DNA from: Halobacteriovoraceae bacterium
GTDB lineage: Bacteria; Bdellovibrionota; Bacteriovoracia; Bacteriovoracales; Bacteriovoracaceae
Reading direction: 5' to 3'
DNA length: 64,000 nucleotides
Assembly: GCA_963719505.1 (NCBI GenBank)
Contig: CAVRCF010000001.1
Coordinates: forward strand, 960,001 to 1,024,000
Positions 55,646 to 64,000 of the stretch are shown one piece after another. The position numbers and the translations under genes were made by a program. Numbering within the stretch: position 1 is the stretch's first letter; each line of letters opens with the position of its first letter. Under the pieces are notes generated by a model. It ran no database searches and was not told the DNA's origin. It saw nothing but the letters and a program-made list of their open reading frames with translations.

Positions 55646-57395
55646 GTAACTGCTCAATATTGTGTTTAAATTTATAGGATTTAAATAGCTTGAACTAGCT
55701 TGCCCAGGTATGGAATTTCTTCTCGTTGGGAGATTCGATCTTCTAAATATCGCCAAAAACTCAAATTTATTTTTCTACAAGTTGAGGCCAGTGAAAGCAT
55801 CAAGTCCCAAGACTTCATTCCTTTCAATGAGCGGTTTTGAAGTGAGATTTTTCTTTTTATCACTCGTTCTCGAAGGTCTCTTTCGCAAAGGTTATTATCC
55901 AGAGGAAGTTGTGGGTATTTCAAAAATAGTAAAAGTTTATCTCTATTCTTTCTTGTTCTTCCAAGCTGTGCATCCAGTGGTTTAACTAATGTTTTTAAAG
56001 ACGTGATCCTCTCAAATTCTGATCGAATCTGTATTCTCTTAACGGTGTCAGGATTATTCCTGTACCTCTTCATGAGCTTATAAAAAGCTCTCCACTGACG
56101 AACCAATTTCTCAAGGGTTTCACTCTCTATTCTTTTGAAAACCTCACATAGCTTATATTTACGAATCTCATGCACCCAACAAAGCTGATGGTTCCTATGA
56201 AGCCCATTAAAATTTGTCCCTTCATCTGAGATTAAAAATCTTATTGGTGGTCCATTCGCTCTAGAGTTCGCATAACTAAGTGCACCAGCAGTTCTAACGA
56301 TATCTTTTTGTTTTTTAGTTACATCTGAGAAAGTCGAATCTTCAAAAAAGACCTCTAATTCTTCTCGACTAAAACTTATCTTCTTTTCTAGAAGGTTAAA
56401 AAATACTGTAACCTTGGGACGTTTTAGTTTCTTACCAATAAAATCAATTGCAGCTCTATCGAAAATAAACCTTTGCTCACCTCCAAAGAGTGCTCCCACC
56501 GATGCCCAACGATTCTTTTCAAAACTCGTAGTGAAGCTAGTAAAGTACTTATGGCTTACTCCAAATGTGTAAGCTTTTACTCCATTAACTTTCGCCCCAG
56601 TATCATCGATATGAACTTTCGAATCTCTTTTTAGTCCTGCATGTCTTGCGGATTCCAGATCAACCTGAAAGTCATCAGTCAGGTTATTTAGAATTGAATT
56701 TATAGTTCCAGCACTAATATCAATTTTTAGCTCAGAGAGCATTTCTCTAATCTTTTCGTGGGGAACTCTTAATTTGTAATTCAAATAAAGAATGTGGGCC
56801 CGAAGTTTAGGACCAAACTGATGGCCCTTGAAACCTGAAGGTATCTCACCTTCGATAACTCTACTAAGACTTTCAGAGTAATATCTCTTAATAGAGAATT
56901 TTATATTTCTGCGATTAAATACTATTTCTTGGACCACAACATCTCTAGAACCGATGAATTTAGCGTCTTTAGGGAGTTCATTTTTATCTGGAGAAATTTC
57001 AATCTCTTCATCAACTTCGATATCTTTCTTTTTAGACTTTTTCTTATGTTCTTTCTTCGGAGGTGGATTTAGGTCACTAGTATTTGTTGGCTTTATTTTA
57101 GGTTTTTCTTTTTCACCTTTGAGACGACGAACTTCATCTATGAGTTCACTATTCTTTTTTTCCAACTCTGAATTTTCTATAGTAAGGTCTACAGCACGCT
57201 GAGCAGTCTCTTTTAACTTTCTTTTGAGTTTGCCTTTATTCCAAGTATTTACCCATCCCATTGCCATGTTTTTTAATTCATCAAATGCCATGGAGATATA
57301 TTTACAAAAAAGAGATGGATGGCCAAACAATTTCTGATGTTTAGTTCAAAATAAATATTTTTAAAGATTTGAAGAACACTTTATTGAGCAGTTAC
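55646..57395 (-). mobile_element. IS66-family insertion sequence, single-ORF (ISBst12-like), 1750 bp
   Basis: Perfect 14-bp TIR GTAACTGCTCAATA (19/21 extended); 8-bp TSD CCTATAGG at 55638-55645 and 57396-57403. Confidence 0.93.
55681..57330 (-). CDS. IS66-family DDE transposase (start probably ATG 57291)
   Basis: N-terminal coiled coil, FGPKL, HIDDTG, ISD, HQLCWVHEIR, DNNLCERDLR. Confidence 0.92.
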   Translation of the reverse strand: MFGHPSLFCKYISMAFDELKNMAMGWVNTWNKGKLKRKLKETAQRAVDLTIENSELEKKNSELIDEVRRLKGEKEKPKIKPTNTSDLNPPPKKEHKKKSKKKDIEVDEEIEISPDKNELPKDAKFIGSRDVVVQEIVFNRRNIKFSIKRYYSESLSRVIEGEIPSGFKGHQFGPKLRAHILYLNYKLRVPHEKIREMLSELKIDISAGTINSILNNLTDDFQVDLESARHAGLKRDSKVHIDDTGAKVNGVKAYTFGVSHKYFTSFTTSFEKNRWASVGALFGGEQRFIFDRAAIDFIGKKLKRPKVTVFFNLLEKKISFSREELEVFFEDSTFSDVTKKQKDIVRTAGALSYANSRANGPPIRFLISDEGTNFNGLHRNHQLCWVHEIRKYKLCEVFKRIESETLEKLVRQWRAFYKLMKRYRNNPDTVKRIQIRSEFERITSLKTLVKPLDAQLGRTRKNRDKLLLFLKYPQLPLDNNLCERDLRERVIKRKISLQNRSLKGMKSWDLMLSLASTCRKINLSFWRYLEDRISQREEIPYLGKLVQAI

Positions 57396-57396
57396 C

Positions 57397-58443
57397 CTAT
57401 AGGAGTGATTCTTGAGTTTGAACTTTGTTTTTTAACGTCACAAAACGCAGCTTATCACCAAATCTAAGCTTTAAAGCTGTTGCGGTAACTGCTGAGATCT
57501 TGGCCTTTCCATTTTCAAGCTTTTCAACATGTCCTAGGCAGGCAATAAAGTCTGTTCCTGAAGTAGAGATCACAAAGACTTCTCCTGTCATTTTATCGTC
57601 ACTAATCTCGCCGACCTCTAAGACTTTACTATCTTTAACAGCACGCACCTCATCGATCTGTGCTTTTAATACAGGTCCTGGTTCAAAAATTCCCACGAGA
57701 CCACTAAACTCAAAACCTTCTTGTTCCAGAATTCTCTTCGCAGGCTCAGTGTGGGGGTGAACCTGTGCAACCACATCTTGAGCATCTTGTGGAAGAAGAT
57801 CAACTAAGATCGCATCTTCTGGGAGAAGTTCTTCAATAAATTTTTTACTTTTCATGGTGAGGTAGTCTGCTTGAACAAAGTCGATGTCCATAAACTTTCT
57901 TCCAACGGCTTCCCAAAAAGGTGAATGGCCATTGTCGTTAACTTTTCCGCGCATCTCTGCAATAACTTGATCTTCAAAATATTTTCTATCTTCTGCTAAA
58001 AATAAAAACCTTGAGAGTGAGAGAAACCTTCCGTTTTGACTATTTCTAAACTCAGGAGAAAGAAAGAGAGAACATATCTCAGCAGGCCCTGCGTGAATTT
58101 TTTCAAAGTGCAAAGACCTAATATCTTTTGTTATCCCCAGCATCTTAGAGACTCTGGTCTCTTCTTTTAGGCGATAAAAGTAGTAGGGCTCAAAACCACC
58201 AATCTTGGAAATGATTCCACTAACACCGACGATCTTCCCAGTAAAAAGTTCTTCCATCACAAAGAGATAAGATTCACCATTGGGTCTTTCGCCTCTATGT
58301 TCAAAGCTTCTTTGGGAGTAGATGATTTTGTTTTTTATAATCACTTCATCTTTAGGAAGAGAGGTCAACCCGTGCCCAGAGTCTTCTAGAAGTCTCATGA
58401 GCCCAGGGAGATCACTTTCTTTTATAGGTCGTATAACAAACAA
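57397..58443 (-). CDS. astA: arginine N-succinyltransferase
   Basis: GLTSLP, YLFVME, EICSLFL, LSLSRFLF, AEMRG, SPFWEAVG, LEQEGF. Confidence 0.93.
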   Translation of the reverse strand: MFVIRPIKESDLPGLMRLLEDSGHGLTSLPKDEVIIKNKIIYSQRSFEHRGERPNGESYLFVMEELFTGKIVGVSGIISKIGGFEPYYFYRLKEETRVSKMLGITKDIRSLHFEKIHAGPAEICSLFLSPEFRNSQNGRFLSLSRFLFLAEDRKYFEDQVIAEMRGKVNDNGHSPFWEAVGRKFMDIDFVQADYLTMKSKKFIEELLPEDAILVDLLPQDAQDVVAQVHPHTEPAKRILEQEGFEFSGLVGIFEPGPVLKAQIDEVRAVKDSKVLEVGEISDDKMTGEVFVISTSGTDFIACLGHVEKLENGKAKISAVTATALKLRFGDKLRFVTLKNKVQTQESLL

Positions 58444-58464: not shown

Positions 58465-59871
58465 CTAGTCAATCTCGCCTAATGTCTTCTCTATAAGAGC
58501 ACAAACATTATCTATATCTTTTTCAGTAACAGCACCTACGGGAACAAGAAACCTCACTCGTGTCGGCTTAGAACCTGCAATAAATGACAGACAGCCATTT
58601 TCAAAAAGTTTGAACGTAAATTGTTTCGATTTTTCCATATCTCCCTTAAAGAGAGTCATTCCAACCATTGCTCCAAGTCCCCAAGGGCCTTGAATCTTCT
58701 CTGGGTGTTTAGCCGCAAGTTTTTCAAGGTTTCCTTTGAAATGTTCATGGATACGATTAATTTTACCATCTTTTCCAAGGTAGCCATTATTAACAACTTC
58801 ACTAATTATATAATGAGCGGCATTAATAGCAGCTCCACTTGATGTGAATGTTTGAGAAATCAGTCCAGGTTTTGGTTTGTGATCTGCTCTATAGAAAGTT
58901 GCACAAATCTGTGAGTTCTTTCCAATATTAACAAAGTCTACATGCTTATCAAGTTTGAAGTATTGGAAAGCAAAAAGCTCTTCTGTCCTCATAAACGATT
59001 GAACCTCGTCAACGATAATAGAGACGCCATGCTTGTGGCATATATCACAAATAGCTTTAAAGTACTCTTCATTACCTACCCAGTAACCACCTTCACCTTG
59101 AACAAGCTCTAAGCACATTGCTGCGTATTCACCTGGGTACCTTTCGAAATACCACTCAAGGTGTTTTACGGCCATTTCAATACTTCTTTCGTGTTGATCT
59201 GGTTTATAAAAGGGAATGTAGTCAACAGATAGGGTTTTAGGGAGACCGGCTCGATATGCGGCCTTATCCGTGATTTGTGAAACAGCGAGTGTTCGTCCCA
59301 TAAAGCACTTTTCAAAAGCGATAACTCGATGAGCGGGGTGATTTTTTTGAAAAGCCATTTTTAATGCATTCTCAGCGGCCATAACTCCACTTGAGGTCAT
59401 AAACATGTGATCAAACCCTGCATCGTACTTATTGGCTTGTGTTAATAAAAGGTCGAAAAGTTTTGGTGAGTCAACATTTTGCTGAAGGTTTCCACTCATC
59501 GTCGTGTTCGTTATAGAACCATCAACTTCTGCGGCAATAACTCCTGGATGTGAATGACCAAAGTAGTGAACCCCAATACCCGTGATAAAGTCATACTTTA
59601 CAGAACCATCTGCAAGCTCAACAAGTGCGCCATTTCCAATTCCCGAACCAATATAATCATAAAAGAGTTTTCCTCCGCGATCTTCGGCAAATTCTTTTAA
59701 AAGCTTCTCATAGCTTTCTTTCAACTCCGGATCACCGGCTTTAACTTCAGTGATTTTGCTTTGATGCTCTTTGACGGCTTCAGCAATAAGTTTTTTTGCT
59801 TCCTCGAGACGAGGATCTTCCAGGTATGATTGTCCGATAGACTTCTTAGTCATAATATCTCCAAAGTTCAT
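58465..59871 (-). CDS. class III PLP aminotransferase (AstC/ArgD-like)
   Basis: YDFITGIG..FGHSHP, FMGRT, ELVQGEGG, DEVQ, GK; upstream of astA. Confidence 0.85.
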   Translation of the reverse strand: MNFGDIMTKKSIGQSYLEDPRLEEAKKLIAEAVKEHQSKITEVKAGDPELKESYEKLLKEFAEDRGGKLFYDYIGSGIGNGALVELADGSVKYDFITGIGVHYFGHSHPGVIAAEVDGSITNTTMSGNLQQNVDSPKLFDLLLTQANKYDAGFDHMFMTSSGVMAAENALKMAFQKNHPAHRVIAFEKCFMGRTLAVSQITDKAAYRAGLPKTLSVDYIPFYKPDQHERSIEMAVKHLEWYFERYPGEYAAMCLELVQGEGGYWVGNEEYFKAICDICHKHGVSIIVDEVQSFMRTEELFAFQYFKLDKHVDFVNIGKNSQICATFYRADHKPKPGLISQTFTSSGAAINAAHYIISEVVNNGYLGKDGKINRIHEHFKGNLEKLAAKHPEKIQGPWGLGAMVGMTLFKGDMEKSKQFTFKLFENGCLSFIAGSKPTRVRFLVPVGAVTEKDIDNVCALIEKTLGEID

Positions 59872-59897: not shown

Positions 59898-59994
59898 TTA
59901 TCGGCTTAATCAGCTAAAATCATTAGAATATATTCAAATTTAGAGTTTGTTCAGGGTATGAAAACACTCAAGTAAACGAAACCCTTACCGATAG
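59898..59994. promoter_or_regulatory. divergent sigma28-type promoter candidates
   Basis: Minus strand GCCGATAA at 59898-59905; plus strand TCAAG-N14-ACCGATAG at 59968-59994. Confidence 0.5.
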
Positions 59995-60001
59995 GAATCT
60001 G

Positions 60002-60526
60002 ATGAATTTATTTTTAACAGTTTTCTGTCTATTTTTGAGTACAAATCTCTTCTCAAAAGAAGTGAAGCTCTCTTCTGATGGTGGAGTCATCATCTTTGAG
60101 TCCTCTGACTCTTGGGAGTTGCGCCATGATCTTTTTGGCATGGAGAATTGGCTGTTTTCACCGAAAGAGAATAATTCAAGAAGCAATATCACTGTGACCA
60201 ACACAAAAACGAAAATAAAGTTAGATATTGAAAAGATCAAAAAAAATCAGAAAAGTTATGAAGCGCTTAAGCGCAATTGGGCTGATGGTGTACAGGCTAA
60301 AGTTATTAGTTTTATCCCGATGAGTTCACGAAAAAATAGTCATGGAAACACAGTGAATACTATAGGGTTTAGATACTTCTTTAAAGACAAAAACTATAGA
60401 GAGGACTCTTATTATATAGACTGTCGAGGAACACTTATTTTCGCCAAGTCTTTAAGGTTAGAGGTAAACGCCAACCATCAAAATGATATCGATAAAATGA
60501 TTAACTCTATGGACTGTTCACTGTGA
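60002..60526 (+). CDS. secreted protein, possible PsbP/DcrB(Mog1)-like fold
   Basis: Signal peptide; pattern of an early Trp, NITV strand, beta meander and terminal helix; 4-nt overlap with next ORF. Confidence 0.55.
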   Translation: MNLFLTVFCLFLSTNLFSKEVKLSSDGGVIIFESSDSWELRHDLFGMENWLFSPKENNSRSNITVTNTKTKIKLDIEKIKKNQKSYEALKRNWADGVQAKVISFIPMSSRKNSHGNTVNTIGFRYFFKDKNYREDSYYIDCRGTLIFAKSLRLEVNANHQNDIDKMINSMDCSL

Positions 60527-63500
60527 AAATACTCTTAACGATTCTCCTTTGTTTTTGTAGTCTTCAAGCTTTTGCTCAATTGCCGGCTAATTGTACTGAA
60601 GGTGAATGCGTAGCAAATCTTGTAGAAGAATTAGAGGAACTCAATTCTGTTTTTAATAAAGAGTGTATGGCCCAAAAAGATTCAGATCAAAGTGTCGATG
60701 ATTACTTTGAGCAAAATGGGATCTCTGAGAAATGCTATGTTATGCTCAGTGAGATTTCTGTCAAACAACAGAAGCTTCAAAGTATTGCGACACAGTTGGA
60801 GGTCGCCGTTGGTGAGAATGAAGTTCGAAGCTGTCAGGTTCCGGACTCGGGAAATCTCTTAAACTCTCAAATTCAAGATATAAACGCCGTCAATTCGCAA
60901 GCTTCATGCTCTGAAGAAAGAAAAAAAGAAGTTAAAAAATCGTGTAGTTCAGACTTGAATTGTTTTATGTTCGCCTCAGCGATGGGAATGGGCGGTGATG
61001 TCGCTGAAAAACTTATCCCTGACTCGATGAAAATCCCAAATTGCAACTTAGGTGATGACTCATGTACGACACAACTTGTAAGTGGATTCATAGATTCCGT
61101 TATGACTTTCTTTTCAGGAGCATGGGATCTTTTAAAGATGGCAAAAAATGGCGTCGAAAAACAGTGGAATAAATTCTGGGGTTGGGTGACGGATGCCGAA
61201 GACCATTCTTCAACTTCTCAGTTGGCCATGGCGGAGGCTTCTGAAGATGATGGCGTTTTCTCCATGCTTGTGGATGACTTCTCTGGAACGATGAGCAGGA
61301 TGTGGCAAGGGCTTGTGGGCTCAATTAAAGAGTGGCTAAAAACTGATATTTTTTGTGAAAAATGGGAAGGAATACCGCGAGCAAGTAAATGTATCCAGCC
61401 TTACACAGACTTTGACTGTGCAAGTTGTAAGACTTTCGCAACGGGTCTATGTGCCGCAACTGGCGTTATTGTAGCAGAGATCGTGCCAGCATTTTTAACT
61501 GGTGGTATCGTGACAGCGGCGAAGCATGGAATTAACGGAGCCGCCAAAATTGCCAAAGTCTTTAAGGTTTCATCCAAGGCAGCTCAAGCACTCAAAAAAA
61601 CAAAAATTGTCTCAAAGGTCTCTAAGAAGGTCTCAAAAATAGATGACATCATCTCTTTGTCTTCAACTGTGTCAAAAATTGGAGCTAAACTTAAAACGGC
61701 ACTTTCAGTTGCTGGTAAATATCTACTTTCTCCATTGGCAAAAAAGACAACCGCGATCGGTAAGAGTCTAAAGGCGCTTTCTTCGAAATCGAAGATGTTT
61801 ATGGCCGAAACATCCTCGGGCAAGATGATCGTTTTCTCTCTCAAGGCTTTAAAGAAGACAGGTAAAGTTATTATTTATCCTATTGATAACCCAATGACGA
61901 CCTTTGCGTTTAAAAAGGGGATGACTTCTTTTGATAAAGCGCTTGTTCTTGGAGCAAAGAAAATTGGTCTCGCAACGAAAACAATAGTGGGAGTTGAAAA
62001 GGCAAGCTCAAGCGCTTACAGATCACTTCTAAAAATGGAAGAAGCTAAAATATTAAATAAAGTTGATAATGCTGAAAACGTCAAAATAAGTAGACTCTAT
62101 CTTGATGAGGTTAAGCCGCACCGGAAAAAAATTGTCTCAGATGTTTTTGAAAGTCAATCGGAGAACTTTAACGATATTGTTGAGACTCTTTACCCCGAAC
62201 TTAAATACGGAAAGCTCTCGGATAATATTCCAGAAGGCGAAATTATCGCAGCAGAGAAAGAGATCTGGGAACAAATTAAAAATGTAAGAGATGGACCTTA
62301 TAAAGATAAGCTCATAGAAAGCTTTCACTTTAAAATTGTCGGGTCAACTGCTAGAGCAAGGCTTGTTAGTAAAACTCCTCTTTATACAGATATCGTTAGA
62401 AATACAAAGCTTAATAGTGCAGACAGACTCTCTGAAGCTCTCAGGATAACGGGGAGATCTAAAGGCACCCAAAAACTTGAAGAAGCCTTGGAAAAAGCCC
62501 ATCTTGTTGGCGAAGAAGGTGGCGTTTATAACTATACATGGAGAGAACTTCGAGAAAAATATCGCCATCTTACAGACGGAGGCTTCTCCCAGGATGAAGC
62601 TGATCTTCTTATCAGGCAAGGTCTCGCTGGCCGTCCTCCTACAAGACAGCTTTTAACTGAAACAGAATCTAAGTTCATGGGACATAATGCAGATATTCTC
62701 GACAAAAAATATCTACAAAAAAGAGATCAACTATTAAAAATAGATAAAGTTGATGAGCCAGTATCAAAGTCAAAAAATATTTTTTCTCGTACGAGAAATT
62801 GGATTAACAAGCGAATGAATGGACCTTCATTGGTTAAAAATCCAAAAATCGTCGATCAAATTGAATCGATATACTTTATAGACAATCGTCATGGTCATAC
62901 AGGTCTTCAAAGTATCATGGATGGTAAGAGCACCATAAAGGCATCCCAAGTTGGGACTCGCTACGGAGAAAAAGAGTTTAAAAATTATCTCAACGCCAAA
63001 AAATATCTTCTAGAAGAAAGTCCAGAACTTTCCATACAAACGTTAAAGAATGTTCAAGCGAAAATGATGGAAGGAGGAGTCGAGGGACTTTCAGAAGCCT
63101 ATATTGGTAACTTTAGAAAGGGTGGTGTTTATGGAAATGTTCCGCCAAGCCATGCCATAACGGAACAAATCAAAGAGGAGATCGTTAAAAACCCTTATCT
63201 CCACTGGATAGAGACAGAAAAAATTGCAAAAGGCGATACTTTTGAATACGCAGGAAAAATTATCTACCCCAATGCAAAAACTATTGAGCCTCGTGGACTT
63301 GAAATTATTACCCAAAGAAATCCAAGTCTCGTTGCGGAGATTGAAGAATTTCAAGCATTACAGAAATTAAAAAGTAAAATCGGTGTTGATCTTGCGGATA
63401 AAAAATATTCTGACCTCGACCTTCCTGATTTTATAAAATCAAAATACAAAAATACCTCTGATCTAGAGATTGCAATTAGAAAAGTTGAACTCGATGAGTT

Positions 63501-64000
63501 TGTTCTAAACGAAAAGCTTATTGGAGAAATGGTTGAAGAGCGTTTTGAATGGTTTAAAAAGGCTCGCTCAGAACTTGGTGATATAGATTCACCTGCAAAG
63601 CTTGATGAGTATGTCGATATGGTTTCGAACCTACAAAGAGATCTTGTTTCAATTCATCCTTTTGGAAACGGTAATGGAAGAACGACAAGAGAGGTGGCCT
63701 TAAATTACCTTCTCGTAAAAGAAGGCTTTCCACCGCCAAGATTAGTTAATCCCAATGCAGATATATATAAAAGTGCTAAACAGTGGTCTGATGAAGTTAA
63801 AGAGGGAATCATTGCCTCTGATCACCTTATGGATGATCTCATTGAAAGACAGCGTATGGGCCTCAAGTTGGAAAACTCTTCAGAGCTTGTTATTCCATTT
63901 AGAACTCCAGCTGTTTCTTTAAATTTAAAAACTGGAACTAAGTTTAAAAATATGGAAGGGGTCGAATACATTGATCCAAAACTTTACCGTGAAATTGTGA
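60523..64000 (+). CDS. large secreted Fic-domain protein, 3' end beyond window (absent from ORF track)
   Basis: GTG 60523, open to window end (>1150 aa); signal MKILLTILLCFCSLQAFAQ; HPFGNGNGRTTR at 63655-63690; upstream Fic element IGNFRKG. Confidence 0.88.
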   Translation, partial: MKILLTILLCFCSLQAFAQLPANCTEGECVANLVEELEELNSVFNKECMAQKDSDQSVDDYFEQNGISEKCYVMLSEISVKQQKLQSIATQLEVAVGENEVRSCQVPDSGNLLNSQIQDINAVNSQASCSEERKKEVKKSCSSDLNCFMFASAMGMGGDVAEKLIPDSMKIPNCNLGDDSCTTQLVSGFIDSVMTFFSGAWDLLKMAKNGVEKQWNKFWGWVTDAEDHSSTSQLAMAEASEDDGVFSMLVDDFSGTMSRMWQGLVGSIKEWLKTDIFCEKWEGIPRASKCIQPYTDFDCASCKTFATGLCAATGVIVAEIVPAFLTGGIVTAAKHGINGAAKIAKVFKVSSKAAQALKKTKIVSKVSKKVSKIDDIISLSSTVSKIGAKLKTALSVAGKYLLSPLAKKTTAIGKSLKALSSKSKMFMAETSSGKMIVFSLKALKKTGKVIIYPIDNPMTTFAFKKGMTSFDKALVLGAKKIGLATKTIVGVEKASSSAYRSLLKMEEAKILNKVDNAENVKISRLYLDEVKPHRKKIVSDVFESQSENFNDIVETLYPELKYGKLSDNIPEGEIIAAEKEIWEQIKNVRDGPYKDKLIESFHFKIVGSTARARLVSKTPLYTDIVRNTKLNSADRLSEALRITGRSKGTQKLEEALEKAHLVGEEGGVYNYTWRELREKYRHLTDGGFSQDEADLLIRQGLAGRPPTRQLLTETESKFMGHNADILDKKYLQKRDQLLKIDKVDEPVSKSKNIFSRTRNWINKRMNGPSLVKNPKIVDQIESIYFIDNRHGHTGLQSIMDGKSTIKASQVGTRYGEKEFKNYLNAKKYLLEESPELSIQTLKNVQAKMMEGGVEGLSEAYIGNFRKGGVYGNVPPSHAITEQIKEEIVKNPYLHWIETEKIAKGDTFEYAGKIIYPNAKTIEPRGLEIITQRNPSLVAEIEEFQALQKLKSKIGVDLADKKYSDLDLPDFIKSKYKNTSDLEIAIRKVELDEFVLNEKLIGEMVEERFEWFKKARSELGDIDSPAKLDEYVDMVSNLQRDLVSIHPFGNGNGRTTREVALNYLLVKEGFPPPRLVNPNADIYKSAKQWSDEVKEGIIASDHLMDDLIERQRMGLKLENSSELVIPFRTPAVSLNLKTGTKFKNMEGVEYIDPKLYREIV

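Follow-up and report, generated by a model that had tools for sequence, protein, structure and literature searches.

The stretch of DNA analysed here, hereafter called the window, comprises 64,000 nucleotides (nt) from the genome of a Halobacteriovoraceae bacterium (assembly GCA_963719505.1, contig CAVRCF010000001.1; C1:960001-1024000 of the source genome). Its right-hand end carries a two-gene unit, consisting of a small 'partner' gene and a very large gene that we refer to as the putative toxin gene. By its predicted structure, the large protein is a dual enzyme in which an AnkX-like Fic domain is packed against an ADP-ribosyltransferase (ART) of the R-S-E type, and this enzymatic head is preceded by a lineage-specific N-terminal module ('N-module'). 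We consider it probable that this protein is directed at prey. A previous inspection of the letters alone (the sequence-only reading) had drawn attention to an open reading frame (ORF) of more than 1150 amino acids (aa) that lacked a stop codon in the window. This ORF is real. Within the window it occupies positions 60523..63999 of the plus strand (1159 aa, no in-window stop), and retrieval of the genomic flank showed that it stops 920 nt beyond the window (L002:5919-5921, window-equivalent 64920, where L002 denotes the own locus including its flank), giving a total of 1465 aa. An identical 1465-aa protein is contained in a public protein collection (P0003), and the N-terminal part of the large protein is present as a single copy in the source genome. 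The features of the locus are as follows, with domain limits in the lower rows taken from AlphaFold2 (AF2) models or alignments where indicated.

59968..59993, plus strand: FliA (sigma-28)-type promoter, TCAAG-N15-CCGATA, with the -10 hexamer ending 8 nt before the partner ATG
60002..60526, plus strand: partner gene, a 174-aa ORF for an exported protein with a predicted PsbP/Mog1/DcrB fold
60523..64000 in the window, ending at window-equivalent 64920, plus strand: putative toxin gene with a GTG start, with aa 1-1159 inside the window and the remainder beyond it
60523..60579, plus strand: signal peptide of the Sec type (aa 1-19, with AFA|Q at its end), read from the sequence by eye
60580..61434, plus strand: Cys-rich acidic N-domain, aa 20-304, core of the N-module (14 Cys, net charge -22)
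61435..61515, plus strand: hydrophobic segment, aa 305-331 (mean Kyte-Doolittle (KD) hydropathy 1.81)
61516..62082, plus strand: cationic amphipathic Lys/Ala/Ser-rich region, aa 332-520 (net charge +28, A+S+K = 44%)
62083..62838, plus strand: middle region, aa 521-772, helical, with no Pfam family
62839..64000, plus strand: predicted AnkX-type Fic domain, spanning aa 773-1198 (in the window to aa 1159), from the AF2 model and profile
63130..63492, plus strand: predicted domain inserted into the beta-hairpin of Fic (about aa 870-990), in which two strands form a long hairpin at aa 894-914 (AF2 model)
63655..63690, plus strand: Fic motif HPFGNGNGRTTR, aa 1045-1056, from the 72-sequence alignment
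L002:5232-5831, plus strand, wholly beyond the window: predicted ART domain, aa 1237-1436, from the AF2 fold and the catalytic triad

The partner gene and the large gene overlap by 4 nt, as had been noted before, and the overlap reads GTGA (60523-60526), combining the start codon of the large gene with the stop codon of its secreted upstream neighbour. At the other end, the large gene is followed 3 nt past its stop codon by a convergent gene for a TetR-family regulator and then by 2-oxoacid dehydrogenase-like ORFs. An immunity gene on the same strand, which the sequence-only reading had suggested looking for at this end, is absent from the own locus, where there is no space for one.

To characterise the enzymatic head, aa 773-1465 were aligned with 71 homologues (72 sequences), and an AF2 model of the same region was obtained with a predicted local distance difference test score (pLDDT) of 96.0 and a predicted template modelling score (pTM) of 0.91. 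The Fic domain was the sole Pfam family recognised in the large protein, and its score was marginal (PF02661, aa 1025-1063, 25.6 bits versus a cut-off of 24). The motif residues H1045, G1050-N-G-R1053 and R1056 are nevertheless all present, in line with the histidine that had been placed at about aa 1045, and so is the asparagine reported in place of the usual acidic residue (N1049). Among the 72 sequences the histidine is found in 62, the residues of GNGR in 62-67 and the final arginine in 64. The large insertion that had been seen ahead of the motif amounts to about 175 residues, counted from GNFR (R865), and in the model the stretch from R865 to the motif helix contains two strands (E122-131 and E134-142 in model numbering) as well as helices.

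The best match for this domain is AnkX, a phosphocholine transferase of the Fic family from Legionella pneumophila (PDB 4BET and 6SKU). Residues 2-426 of the model matched AnkX best (4bet_B; Z 18.0 over 240 residues, root-mean-square deviation (rmsd) 3.1, 20% identity; structure comparison with VIA), and AnkX scored Z 16.4-18.0 versus Z ~14 for generic Fic folds (13.1-14.3 for FICD, BT_2513 and SoFic). AnkX was also the first match at the sequence level in both NCBIfam and the PDB (E 1e-4 with the single sequence), and the family profile matched AnkX in the PDB with an E-value of 1.2e-14 over AnkX residues 69-296, compared to 2e-10 for FICD. The structural alignment covers AnkX residues 15-417. 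In AnkX, aa 110-179 form the insert domain, which is set into the beta-hairpin and bears a 'thorn' of two strands (PMC7228754). As the profile match spans this insert, and the model shows helices and a hairpin at the same place, the insertion is of the AnkX type. The resemblance thus includes an insert domain with helices and a protruding two-stranded sheet, and neither protein has an inhibitory-helix motif: a search for [ST]xxxE[GN] near the Fic core gave no match, and the sole match elsewhere, TPTAEN at aa 1450, is not conserved and was judged to be due to chance. The two proteins differ in that AnkX has an aspartate at motif position 5, possesses ankyrin repeats and is exported by Dot/Icm, whereas the large protein has an asparagine, a Sec signal and no ankyrin repeats detectable by Pfam. 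Since these repeats are missing and the match to the NCBIfam AnkX equivalog NF043028 reaches only 28.4 bits versus a cut-off of 1400, the large protein is not an AnkX orthologue. Nor does the resemblance imply CDP-choline as the co-substrate. The residues of AnkX that bind cytidine monophosphate (CMP) are D28, R30, Y41 and R44 (PMC4454073), and the sequence alignment with AnkX begins past them, at residue 69, so that they cannot be aligned; D787 (63/72) and Y814 (50/72), which are conserved in the equivalent N-terminal region of the head, are no more than candidate counterparts of the CMP-binding residues.

While the Fic domain had been recognised from the sequence, a second enzyme in the last 306 residues, which lie outside the window, had been missed. 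When model residues 465-664 (aa 1237-1436) were compared with 48,161 representative chains, all non-Fic chains matching at Z of at least 6 were ARTs of the R-S-E type. The best of these was the Rhs toxin TreX (Z 10.4, 127/128 residues, rmsd 2.8), followed by EcPltA (9.2), the heat-labile enterotoxin (LT; 8.3), Scabin (7.8), the pertussis toxin S1 subunit (PT-S1; 7.6), CARDS (6.9), pierisin (6.4) and MTX (6.2). Foldseek named the same ART families (TreX, E 4.7e-3, TMt 0.64). The catalytic residues are located on the model strands where they are expected in ARTs (469-480, 557-561 and 628-632), and they are strongly conserved among the 72 sequences: R1248 in 67, S1331, T1332 and S1333 in 68, 62 and 64, respectively, and E1400 in 69. 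At the sequence level, no ART family was matched in Pfam or NCBIfam at E ≤1, and a profile search of the PDB gave no ART chain at E ≤10. It is therefore by its predicted fold, together with the triad, that the C-terminal domain is assigned to the cholera-toxin/TreX clade of R-S-E ADP-ribosyltransferases. E-x-E has been described as a mark of arginine-modifying ARTs (PMC11606950), and the domain has Q-x-E instead (Q1398 in 59 of the 72 sequences, E in 8), which suggests an acceptor other than arginine. Like TreX, EcPltA, LT, Scabin and PT-S1, it combines the fold with an Arg, Ser-Thr-Ser and x-E triad on matching strands, and it is free of cysteine, as is the secreted toxin TreX (PMC11606950). 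Unlike these toxins, it is always fused to Fic, lacks a B subunit, an Rhs cage and an immunity gene, and carries the Q-x-E loop. Such Q-x-E loops are known from C3-like and DNA-targeting ARTs.

The fusion of the two domains appears to be permanent. An exhaustive search with aa 560-1465 retrieved 427 proteins at E ≤1e-3, 97 of them at E ≤1e-30, and the shared core (aa 991-1462) is present in many proteins of 700-790 aa. Fic and ART were always found together. Matches occur in 43 of 301 genomes of the phylum, representing several families, and the named members are from Peredibacter, metagenome-assembled genomes of Bacteriovoracaceae and Bdellovibrio bacteriovorus. No description of such a permanent fusion, or of this family as Fic plus ART, was found in the literature searched. 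The Fic core is also embedded in a metagenomic protein of 5508 aa (P0212). The stand-alone homologues have features of exported proteins. Among the 71 aligned, 66 have a Met start, and 53 of these 66 have an N-terminal hydrophobic leader, with lipobox-like sites in 12. Furthermore, the Fic-ART region is free of cysteine in 48 of 72 sequences, and its overall cysteine content is 0.14% versus 1.06% in the ORFs of the window. The leaders and the cysteine depletion suggest that the head acts outside the cytoplasm of the producing cell.

The region in front of this head was largely as the sequence-only reading had described it. The Sec signal has a signal-like h-region (KD mean 1.89 over aa 3-21), the hydrophobic segment includes the stretch that had been named (aa 308-330), and the Lys/Ala/Ser-rich linker is found directly behind it. 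The N-terminal region is indeed Cys-rich: all 17 cysteines of the 1465-aa protein lie in aa 1-310, with none in the remaining 1155 residues (aa 311-1465). An alignment of the N-modules of 50 proteins shows 13 conserved cysteines (11 invariant and 2 nearly invariant), of which 12 are located in aa 20-304 and the 13th is C310, and the Cys spacing of the N-domain is repeated in 18 N-module proteins of relatives. In the hydrophobic segment, two residues do not vary among the same 50 sequences (C310 and G328), and four more are kept in at least 90% (G314, E319, T326 and G327); a proline is also present, both in the own protein and in the family consensus. The first 40 residues behind this segment contain 9 Lys or Arg and no Asp or Glu. 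The mean helical hydrophobic moment of aa 332-520 is 0.326, compared to 0.209 +/- 0.027 for shuffled sequences, and none of 500 shuffles attained the observed value. Pfam scans of the N-module revealed no recognisable enzymatic domain. The best leads for this module in the Protein Atlas stayed below 0.9 (MafB, PT-TG and EndoU at 0.78, which is the noise level), and aa 540-772 had no usable match there. Residues 560-750 have counterparts at the C-termini of short N-module proteins and within some very large proteins. For instance, the helical region of aa 620-710 is found in two very large metagenomic proteins, P0214 (3703 aa) and P0216 (2741 aa), neither of which has a Pfam family. Ten large proteins that have either aa 620-710 or the Fic core in common with the own protein were scanned with Pfam; seven matched no family, and three matched Fic alone.

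The sequence-only reading had proposed a polymorphic-toxin-like protein and a search for its N-terminal region on proteins with other C-terminal domains. Such proteins exist. The N-module, which extends from aa 20 to about aa 620, is joined either to Fic-ART or to other C-termini, so that, as in polymorphic toxins (Zhang et al. 2012), a conserved N-terminus is combined with varying C-termini. The N-module proteins at the loci examined range from 709 to 2229 aa (709-1441 aa in relatives), and a database search with aa 20-560 added classes of about 825-950 aa and about 1290-1325 aa. A further class measures about 2100-2350 aa. One genome (G054) encodes both the Fic-ART form and a form of 1305 aa, each with its own partner gene. 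The other C-termini of 14 N-module proteins gave nothing credible in Pfam; the one match, to MS_channel_2nd (E 5.4e-4, 20.5 bits), included no stretch that passed by itself. On the other hand, 53 of the 78 matches other than the own protein are collinear over nearly the full length (aa 1-34 to 1445-1465). The Fic-bearing form therefore mainly represents a conserved orthologue family, of which Peredibacter starrii has a full-length member, and the part of the proposal that implied a cassette-style replacement of C-termini or an immunity gene was not supported.

The second class of N-module proteins comprises 22 proteins of 1274-1325 aa (mostly about 1290-1325 aa), each accompanied by its own partner gene (for example L044:2814-6731, minus strand). 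The consensus of their C-terminal half contains two GxGxxG-type dinucleotide-binding motifs and a FATGY-like motif, and there are weak Pfam matches to flavoprotein families (Thi4 in 12/22, best E 0.004; Lys/Orn oxygenase in 7/22, best E 0.083). A profile of this class gave no match in the PDB at E 0.01. Judging from these motifs, the N-module may also carry an exported flavoenzyme.

The association of the partner gene with the N-module is close. Of 19 N-module places examined in other genomes, 18 have an intact partner gene next to the module, 13 times upstream on the same strand, often with an overlap, and 5 times divergently; the 19th place has a partner copy with a stop codon. Among the 17 N-module places brought in by the toxin query, the partner is present at 16. 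At places with Fic-ART only, it was found at 0 of 11 within the flanks examined. Thus, the partner follows the N-module and not the enzymes, as would be expected of a helper and not of an immunity protein against Fic.

For the partner sequence, Pfam returned no family, and the one match in NCBIfam, to a Tsx-type channel, was weak (E 0.015, 14.6 bits versus a cut-off of 311). Homologues were gathered by an iterative search over the loci, and 20 of them were aligned. All 20 have a signal-like N-terminus and two invariant cysteines, C141 and C172, and they evolve fast (19-38% identity), as does the N-module. The AF2 model of the partner (pLDDT 90.7) confirmed the predicted PsbP/Mog1/DcrB fold, and the Foldseek comparison that had been proposed for it gave PsbP (2xb3, E 7.7e-6). 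With VIA, the matches were 3lyd (Z 13.8), TplEi (13.1), cyanobacterial PsbP (13.0), LpqN (12.1), Tsi3 (10.6), EagT6/PA0094 (10.2), DcrB (8.3), SciW (8.3) and PA3488 (8.0). Nineteen chains reached a Z of at least 8, and the 20 top chains (Z 8.0-13.8) are PsbP, PPL, LpqN, MTC28, Apa, Tsi3, TplEi, Mog1, DcrB, SciW and related or uncharacterised proteins.

The fold had led to the proposal of a dedicated chaperone like the Eag proteins. With respect to Eag proteins (EagT6, SciW), DcrB and PsbP, the partner shares the fold, and its gene adjoins, usually upstream, that of an effector with a hydrophobic segment. Eag proteins work in the cytoplasm on prePAAR effectors of the T6SS (type VI secretion system). 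The partner, however, is exported and has a Cys pair, its putative effector has a Sec signal of its own, and no match to a T6SS sheath gene (VipB/TssC) was found in the source genome, which is 83.5% complete. The signal peptide and the invariant Cys pair mean that a cytoplasmic role of the Eag type does not fit. The linkage to the N-terminal region agrees with the helper part of the proposal.

The sigma28-like promoter that had been noted upstream of the partner gene is conserved across loci. In B. bacteriovorus, the attack-phase consensus TTAAG-N16-CCGATA is present in 92 of 140 attack-phase promoters and has been assigned to FliA (Karunker et al., PMC3627812). An exact CCGATA occurs 7 times, in 7 of the 18 partner-upstream segments, where 0.28 occurrences would be expected. 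The strict two-box pattern is found in 5 of these 18 segments and nowhere else in the 254,528 nt of those loci, and a loose form in 10 of 18. This confinement to the partner-upstream segments argues for more than chance. An alternative reading of the own promoter, with a -35 box in TAAA-N10-CCGATA, is mis-spaced, and the cross-locus alignment shows TCAAG to be the -35 element. At five loci (L002, L052, L049, L050 and L053) a CCGATA-type -10 box, exact in three of them, starts 13-14 nt before the annotated start, so that the leader would be very short or absent; the partner mRNA may be leaderless, or the annotated starts may be mis-set. The same intergenic region contains a second FliA-like site on the minus strand (TAATG-N16-GCCGATA, 59899-59925 of the window), which faces genes for a class-III aminotransferase (58465-59871) and for AstA, arginine succinyltransferase (57397-58443). 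As for the sigma factor, the best FliA/WhiG-type match is located at C3:303559-304238 of the assembly and is split over two reading frames; its pieces cover model positions 1-137 and 70-224, each below the curated cut-off, in a region with ORFs of only 60-103 aa. The split of this match may be due to a frameshift or an assembly error. A search of sequencing runs listed no RNA run, and only one marine metagenome DNA run (0.05 of words).

A link to predation is provided by the homologue of the head in B. bacteriovorus, CAE79880.1. This protein of 770 aa has a signal peptide and shows 35% identity over aa 780-1458 (E 5e-136), with the motifs HPVLNGNGRTTR (which also has N at position 5), WRG, SYGYSTS and RQAEVM. 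When its gene, 2313 nt long, is compared with Table S1 of PMC3627812, the length together with the size and type of the adjacent genes points to Bd2033 of strain HD100, to which it appears to correspond; Bd1955, which is of similar length, was rejected since its neighbours differ. Bd2033 is listed among the genes of Tudor's transposon screen for 'predatory genes' and was up-regulated at 30 min of predation in an array study (Lambert et al., PMC2797640). It is also listed among the conserved hypotheticals of the predatory core that is common with Bacteriovorax marinus (Crossman et al., PMC3526173). Bd2033 resembles the large protein in its Fic-ART head, signal peptide and motifs, and differs from it in its length, in the absence of an N-module and, within the neighbourhood examined, of a partner gene, and in being annotated as 'hypothetical' or 'Fic family protein'.

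Some further genes near the locus should be mentioned. An ORF for an IS66-family transposase (549 aa; Pfam DDE_Tnp_IS66, E 3.5e-26) is located at 55681-57330 of the window on the minus strand, 2.7 kb upstream of the operon. Downstream of the window, three minus-strand ORFs have signal-like N-termini. These encode a 567-aa protein without a Pfam family (L002:9053-10756), a YceI-like protein (L002:10834-11412) and a 108-aa Kazal-type protease-inhibitor protein (L002:13046-13372). At one orthologous locus, the toxin gene is followed by a photolyase gene.

In our view, the dual enzyme encoded here is a Sec-exported effector that is aimed at prey, is attached to a lineage-specific carrier and is accompanied by an exported periplasmic helper, and we assign to this reading a probability of roughly 60%. 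The two genes would form an operon of a Bacteriovoracaceae-type predator, its FliA (sigma-28) promoter being of the type that serves the Bdellovibrio attack phase, with the second gene translationally coupled to the first through the GTGA overlap. The first gene would yield an exported, disulfide-bonded protein of the PsbP/Mog1/DcrB fold, and the second a carrier (the N-module, with its Cys-rich, hydrophobic and cationic amphipathic parts and its helical middle) to which a compact Fic-ART head is attached. Both proteins would be exported to the periplasm of the predator, where the partner may hold or escort the N-module. Upon prey attack the effector would be released, and its hydrophobic and cationic region would take the head across the inner membrane of the prey. 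Once in the cytoplasm of the prey, both enzymes would modify prey targets with the help of NAD+ and a nucleotide co-substrate. We propose that no immunity gene would be needed, because the enzymes would meet no co-substrates in the periplasm of the producer. Delivery into the prey, toxicity, binding of the partner to the toxin and both enzyme activities are thus what we infer for this locus.

It should be noted that several observations weigh against this interpretation. There is no sign of secretion past the inner membrane, and the combination of a signal, a hydrophobic segment and a stretch of charge +28 would also fit a type-I anchor with the enzymes in the predator's cytoplasm. All folds are predictions. 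Position 5 of the Fic motif is N1049 instead of Asp or Glu (among the 72 sequences: D 39, N 25, E 2), and this asparagine leaves the activity of the domain unproven. The leader test applied to the homologues is crude, as 13 of 26 control ORFs of the window pass it and 13 of the 66 homologues fail. No immunity gene was found in flanks of about 1.5 kb at most loci, which is atypical for interbacterial toxins; beside the stand-alone loci there is likewise no conserved small immunity gene, and only housekeeping synteny is seen (Mur ligase, beta-lactamase-like, radical-SAM etc.). The best fliA-like match in the assembly is split over two frames. Lastly, the evidence from Bdellovibrio is not straightforward. 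The equation with Bd2033 is based solely on gene length and on the sizes and types of the neighbours. Bd2033 has no N-module, and there is no partner gene in the neighbourhood examined. In the RNA-seq data of Karunker et al., Bd2033 is classified as 'Silent', with 2.1 reads per kilobase per million (RPKM) in the attack phase and 23.2 at 3 h (PMC3627812). As its expression rises at 30 min and not in the attack phase, the only homologue with expression data does not back the attack-phase reading of the promoter. The 'Silent' status in RNA-seq and the induction at 30 min in the array study are compatible with a brief early induction.

The main rival to a prey-directed effector is an enzyme that is directed at the predator itself. 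In this case, the large protein would be a type-I enzyme of the inner membrane, the Cys-rich domain and the PsbP-fold partner would form a periplasmic sensor, the hydrophobic segment would serve as a stop-transfer anchor, and the Fic-ART head would modify cytoplasmic proteins of the predator as a regulatory switch. The layout of a signal peptide followed by a single hydrophobic segment is common in N-module proteins, the cationic residues directly behind this segment fit the positive-inside rule, and such an enzyme would account for the lack of an immunity gene. ATP-type nucleotides and NAD+ are cytoplasmic, and the relatives PsbP, DcrB and LpqN are periplasmic accessory proteins. However, in most stand-alone homologues the same head is located straight behind a signal peptide or lipobox and is thus exported, and its cysteine depletion is that of secreted proteins. 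The hydrophobic segment is only marginally hydrophobic, with a nearly invariant Glu, a GG pair and a Pro, there is no regulatory inhibitory helix, and the Bdellovibrio homologue is linked to predation. For these reasons, we regard a self-directed enzyme as rather unlikely.

Still less probable is a surface-anchored contact toxin of the MafA/MafB type, in which the exported partner would tether the N-module on the predator surface, the displayed toxin would act upon contact with prey or competitors, and the hydrophobic segment would have no translocating role. The MafB proteins of Neisseria are described as having a signal peptide, a lineage-specific N-domain and variable C-termini, with an upstream secreted, non-polymorphic protein that is predicted to act as an anchor (PMC3482391). 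The layout found here is the same: MafA/MafB and other Sec-dependent toxins share with it the signal peptide, the lineage-restricted N-domain, the differing C-termini and the upstream secreted companion, and different C-termini within one genome, as in G054, are described for the APD proteins of Amoebophilus (PMC3482391). The adjacency of partner and N-module in 18 of 19 places agrees with this arrangement, and MafB and PT-TG clusters were listed by the Atlas feature search, but at the noise level. No sequence relationship to MafA/MafB was found, however. The companion has a PsbP fold, no lipobox at the own locus and no similarity to MafA detectable in Pfam or NCBIfam; the N-module has a hydrophobic segment and a cationic region; and neither cassette arrays nor immunity genes were seen, in contrast to the downstream mafI. 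Moreover, the Fic and ART enzymes would still have to reach a cytoplasm for their co-substrates.

Finally, it is very improbable that the partner is a periplasmic immunity protein against a membrane-damaging N-module, comparable to Tsi3, TplEi and Tli5 against periplasm-acting T6SS effectors: although it is exported, follows the N-module and has three periplasmic T6SS immunity proteins among its fold neighbours (TplEi, Tsi3 and PA3488), the fold is generic (PsbP, LpqN, Mog1 and Eag score alike), the N-module has no recognisable enzymatic domain, the partner gene is upstream or divergent and not downstream, and fast evolution fits any binding partner equally well.

A more far-reaching version of the prey-directed reading is that the N-module and its exported PsbP-fold partner constitute a previously undescribed, predator-specific platform for effector delivery. 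The partner would be a periplasmic counterpart of Eag proteins that shields the hydrophobic segment until prey contact, and the hydrophobic and cationic region would carry varied heads (Fic-ART, flavoenzyme-like) across the inner membrane of the prey without a dedicated injection machine, under co-regulation by the attack-phase sigma-28 regulon. This proposal is tentative, and we would sooner bet against it than on it. If it were true, no natural toxin before the Fic-ART head would have united ADP-ribosylation with a Fic-type modification in a single rigid unit, and Bd2033's phenotype in predation would have an explanation.

To our knowledge, only very few proteins are known that Bdellovibrio-like predators place in the cytoplasm of their prey, and the route by which predator proteins cross the inner membrane of the prey is a standing question. 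The present locus supplies a specific candidate for such a protein: its two catalytic centres, H1045 and E1400, can be recognised, and a putative carrier and a putative helper come with it. Should both centres be active, a new question would be whether they act cooperatively on one target or hit two different targets. The partner may extend the PsbP/DcrB/Eag fold to a role as a periplasmic escort. For the family as a whole, which includes Bd2033, a protein that had been linked to predation and was nevertheless still 'hypothetical', the predicted structures now provide an identity as an AnkX-like Fic enzyme joined to a cholera-toxin-like ART.

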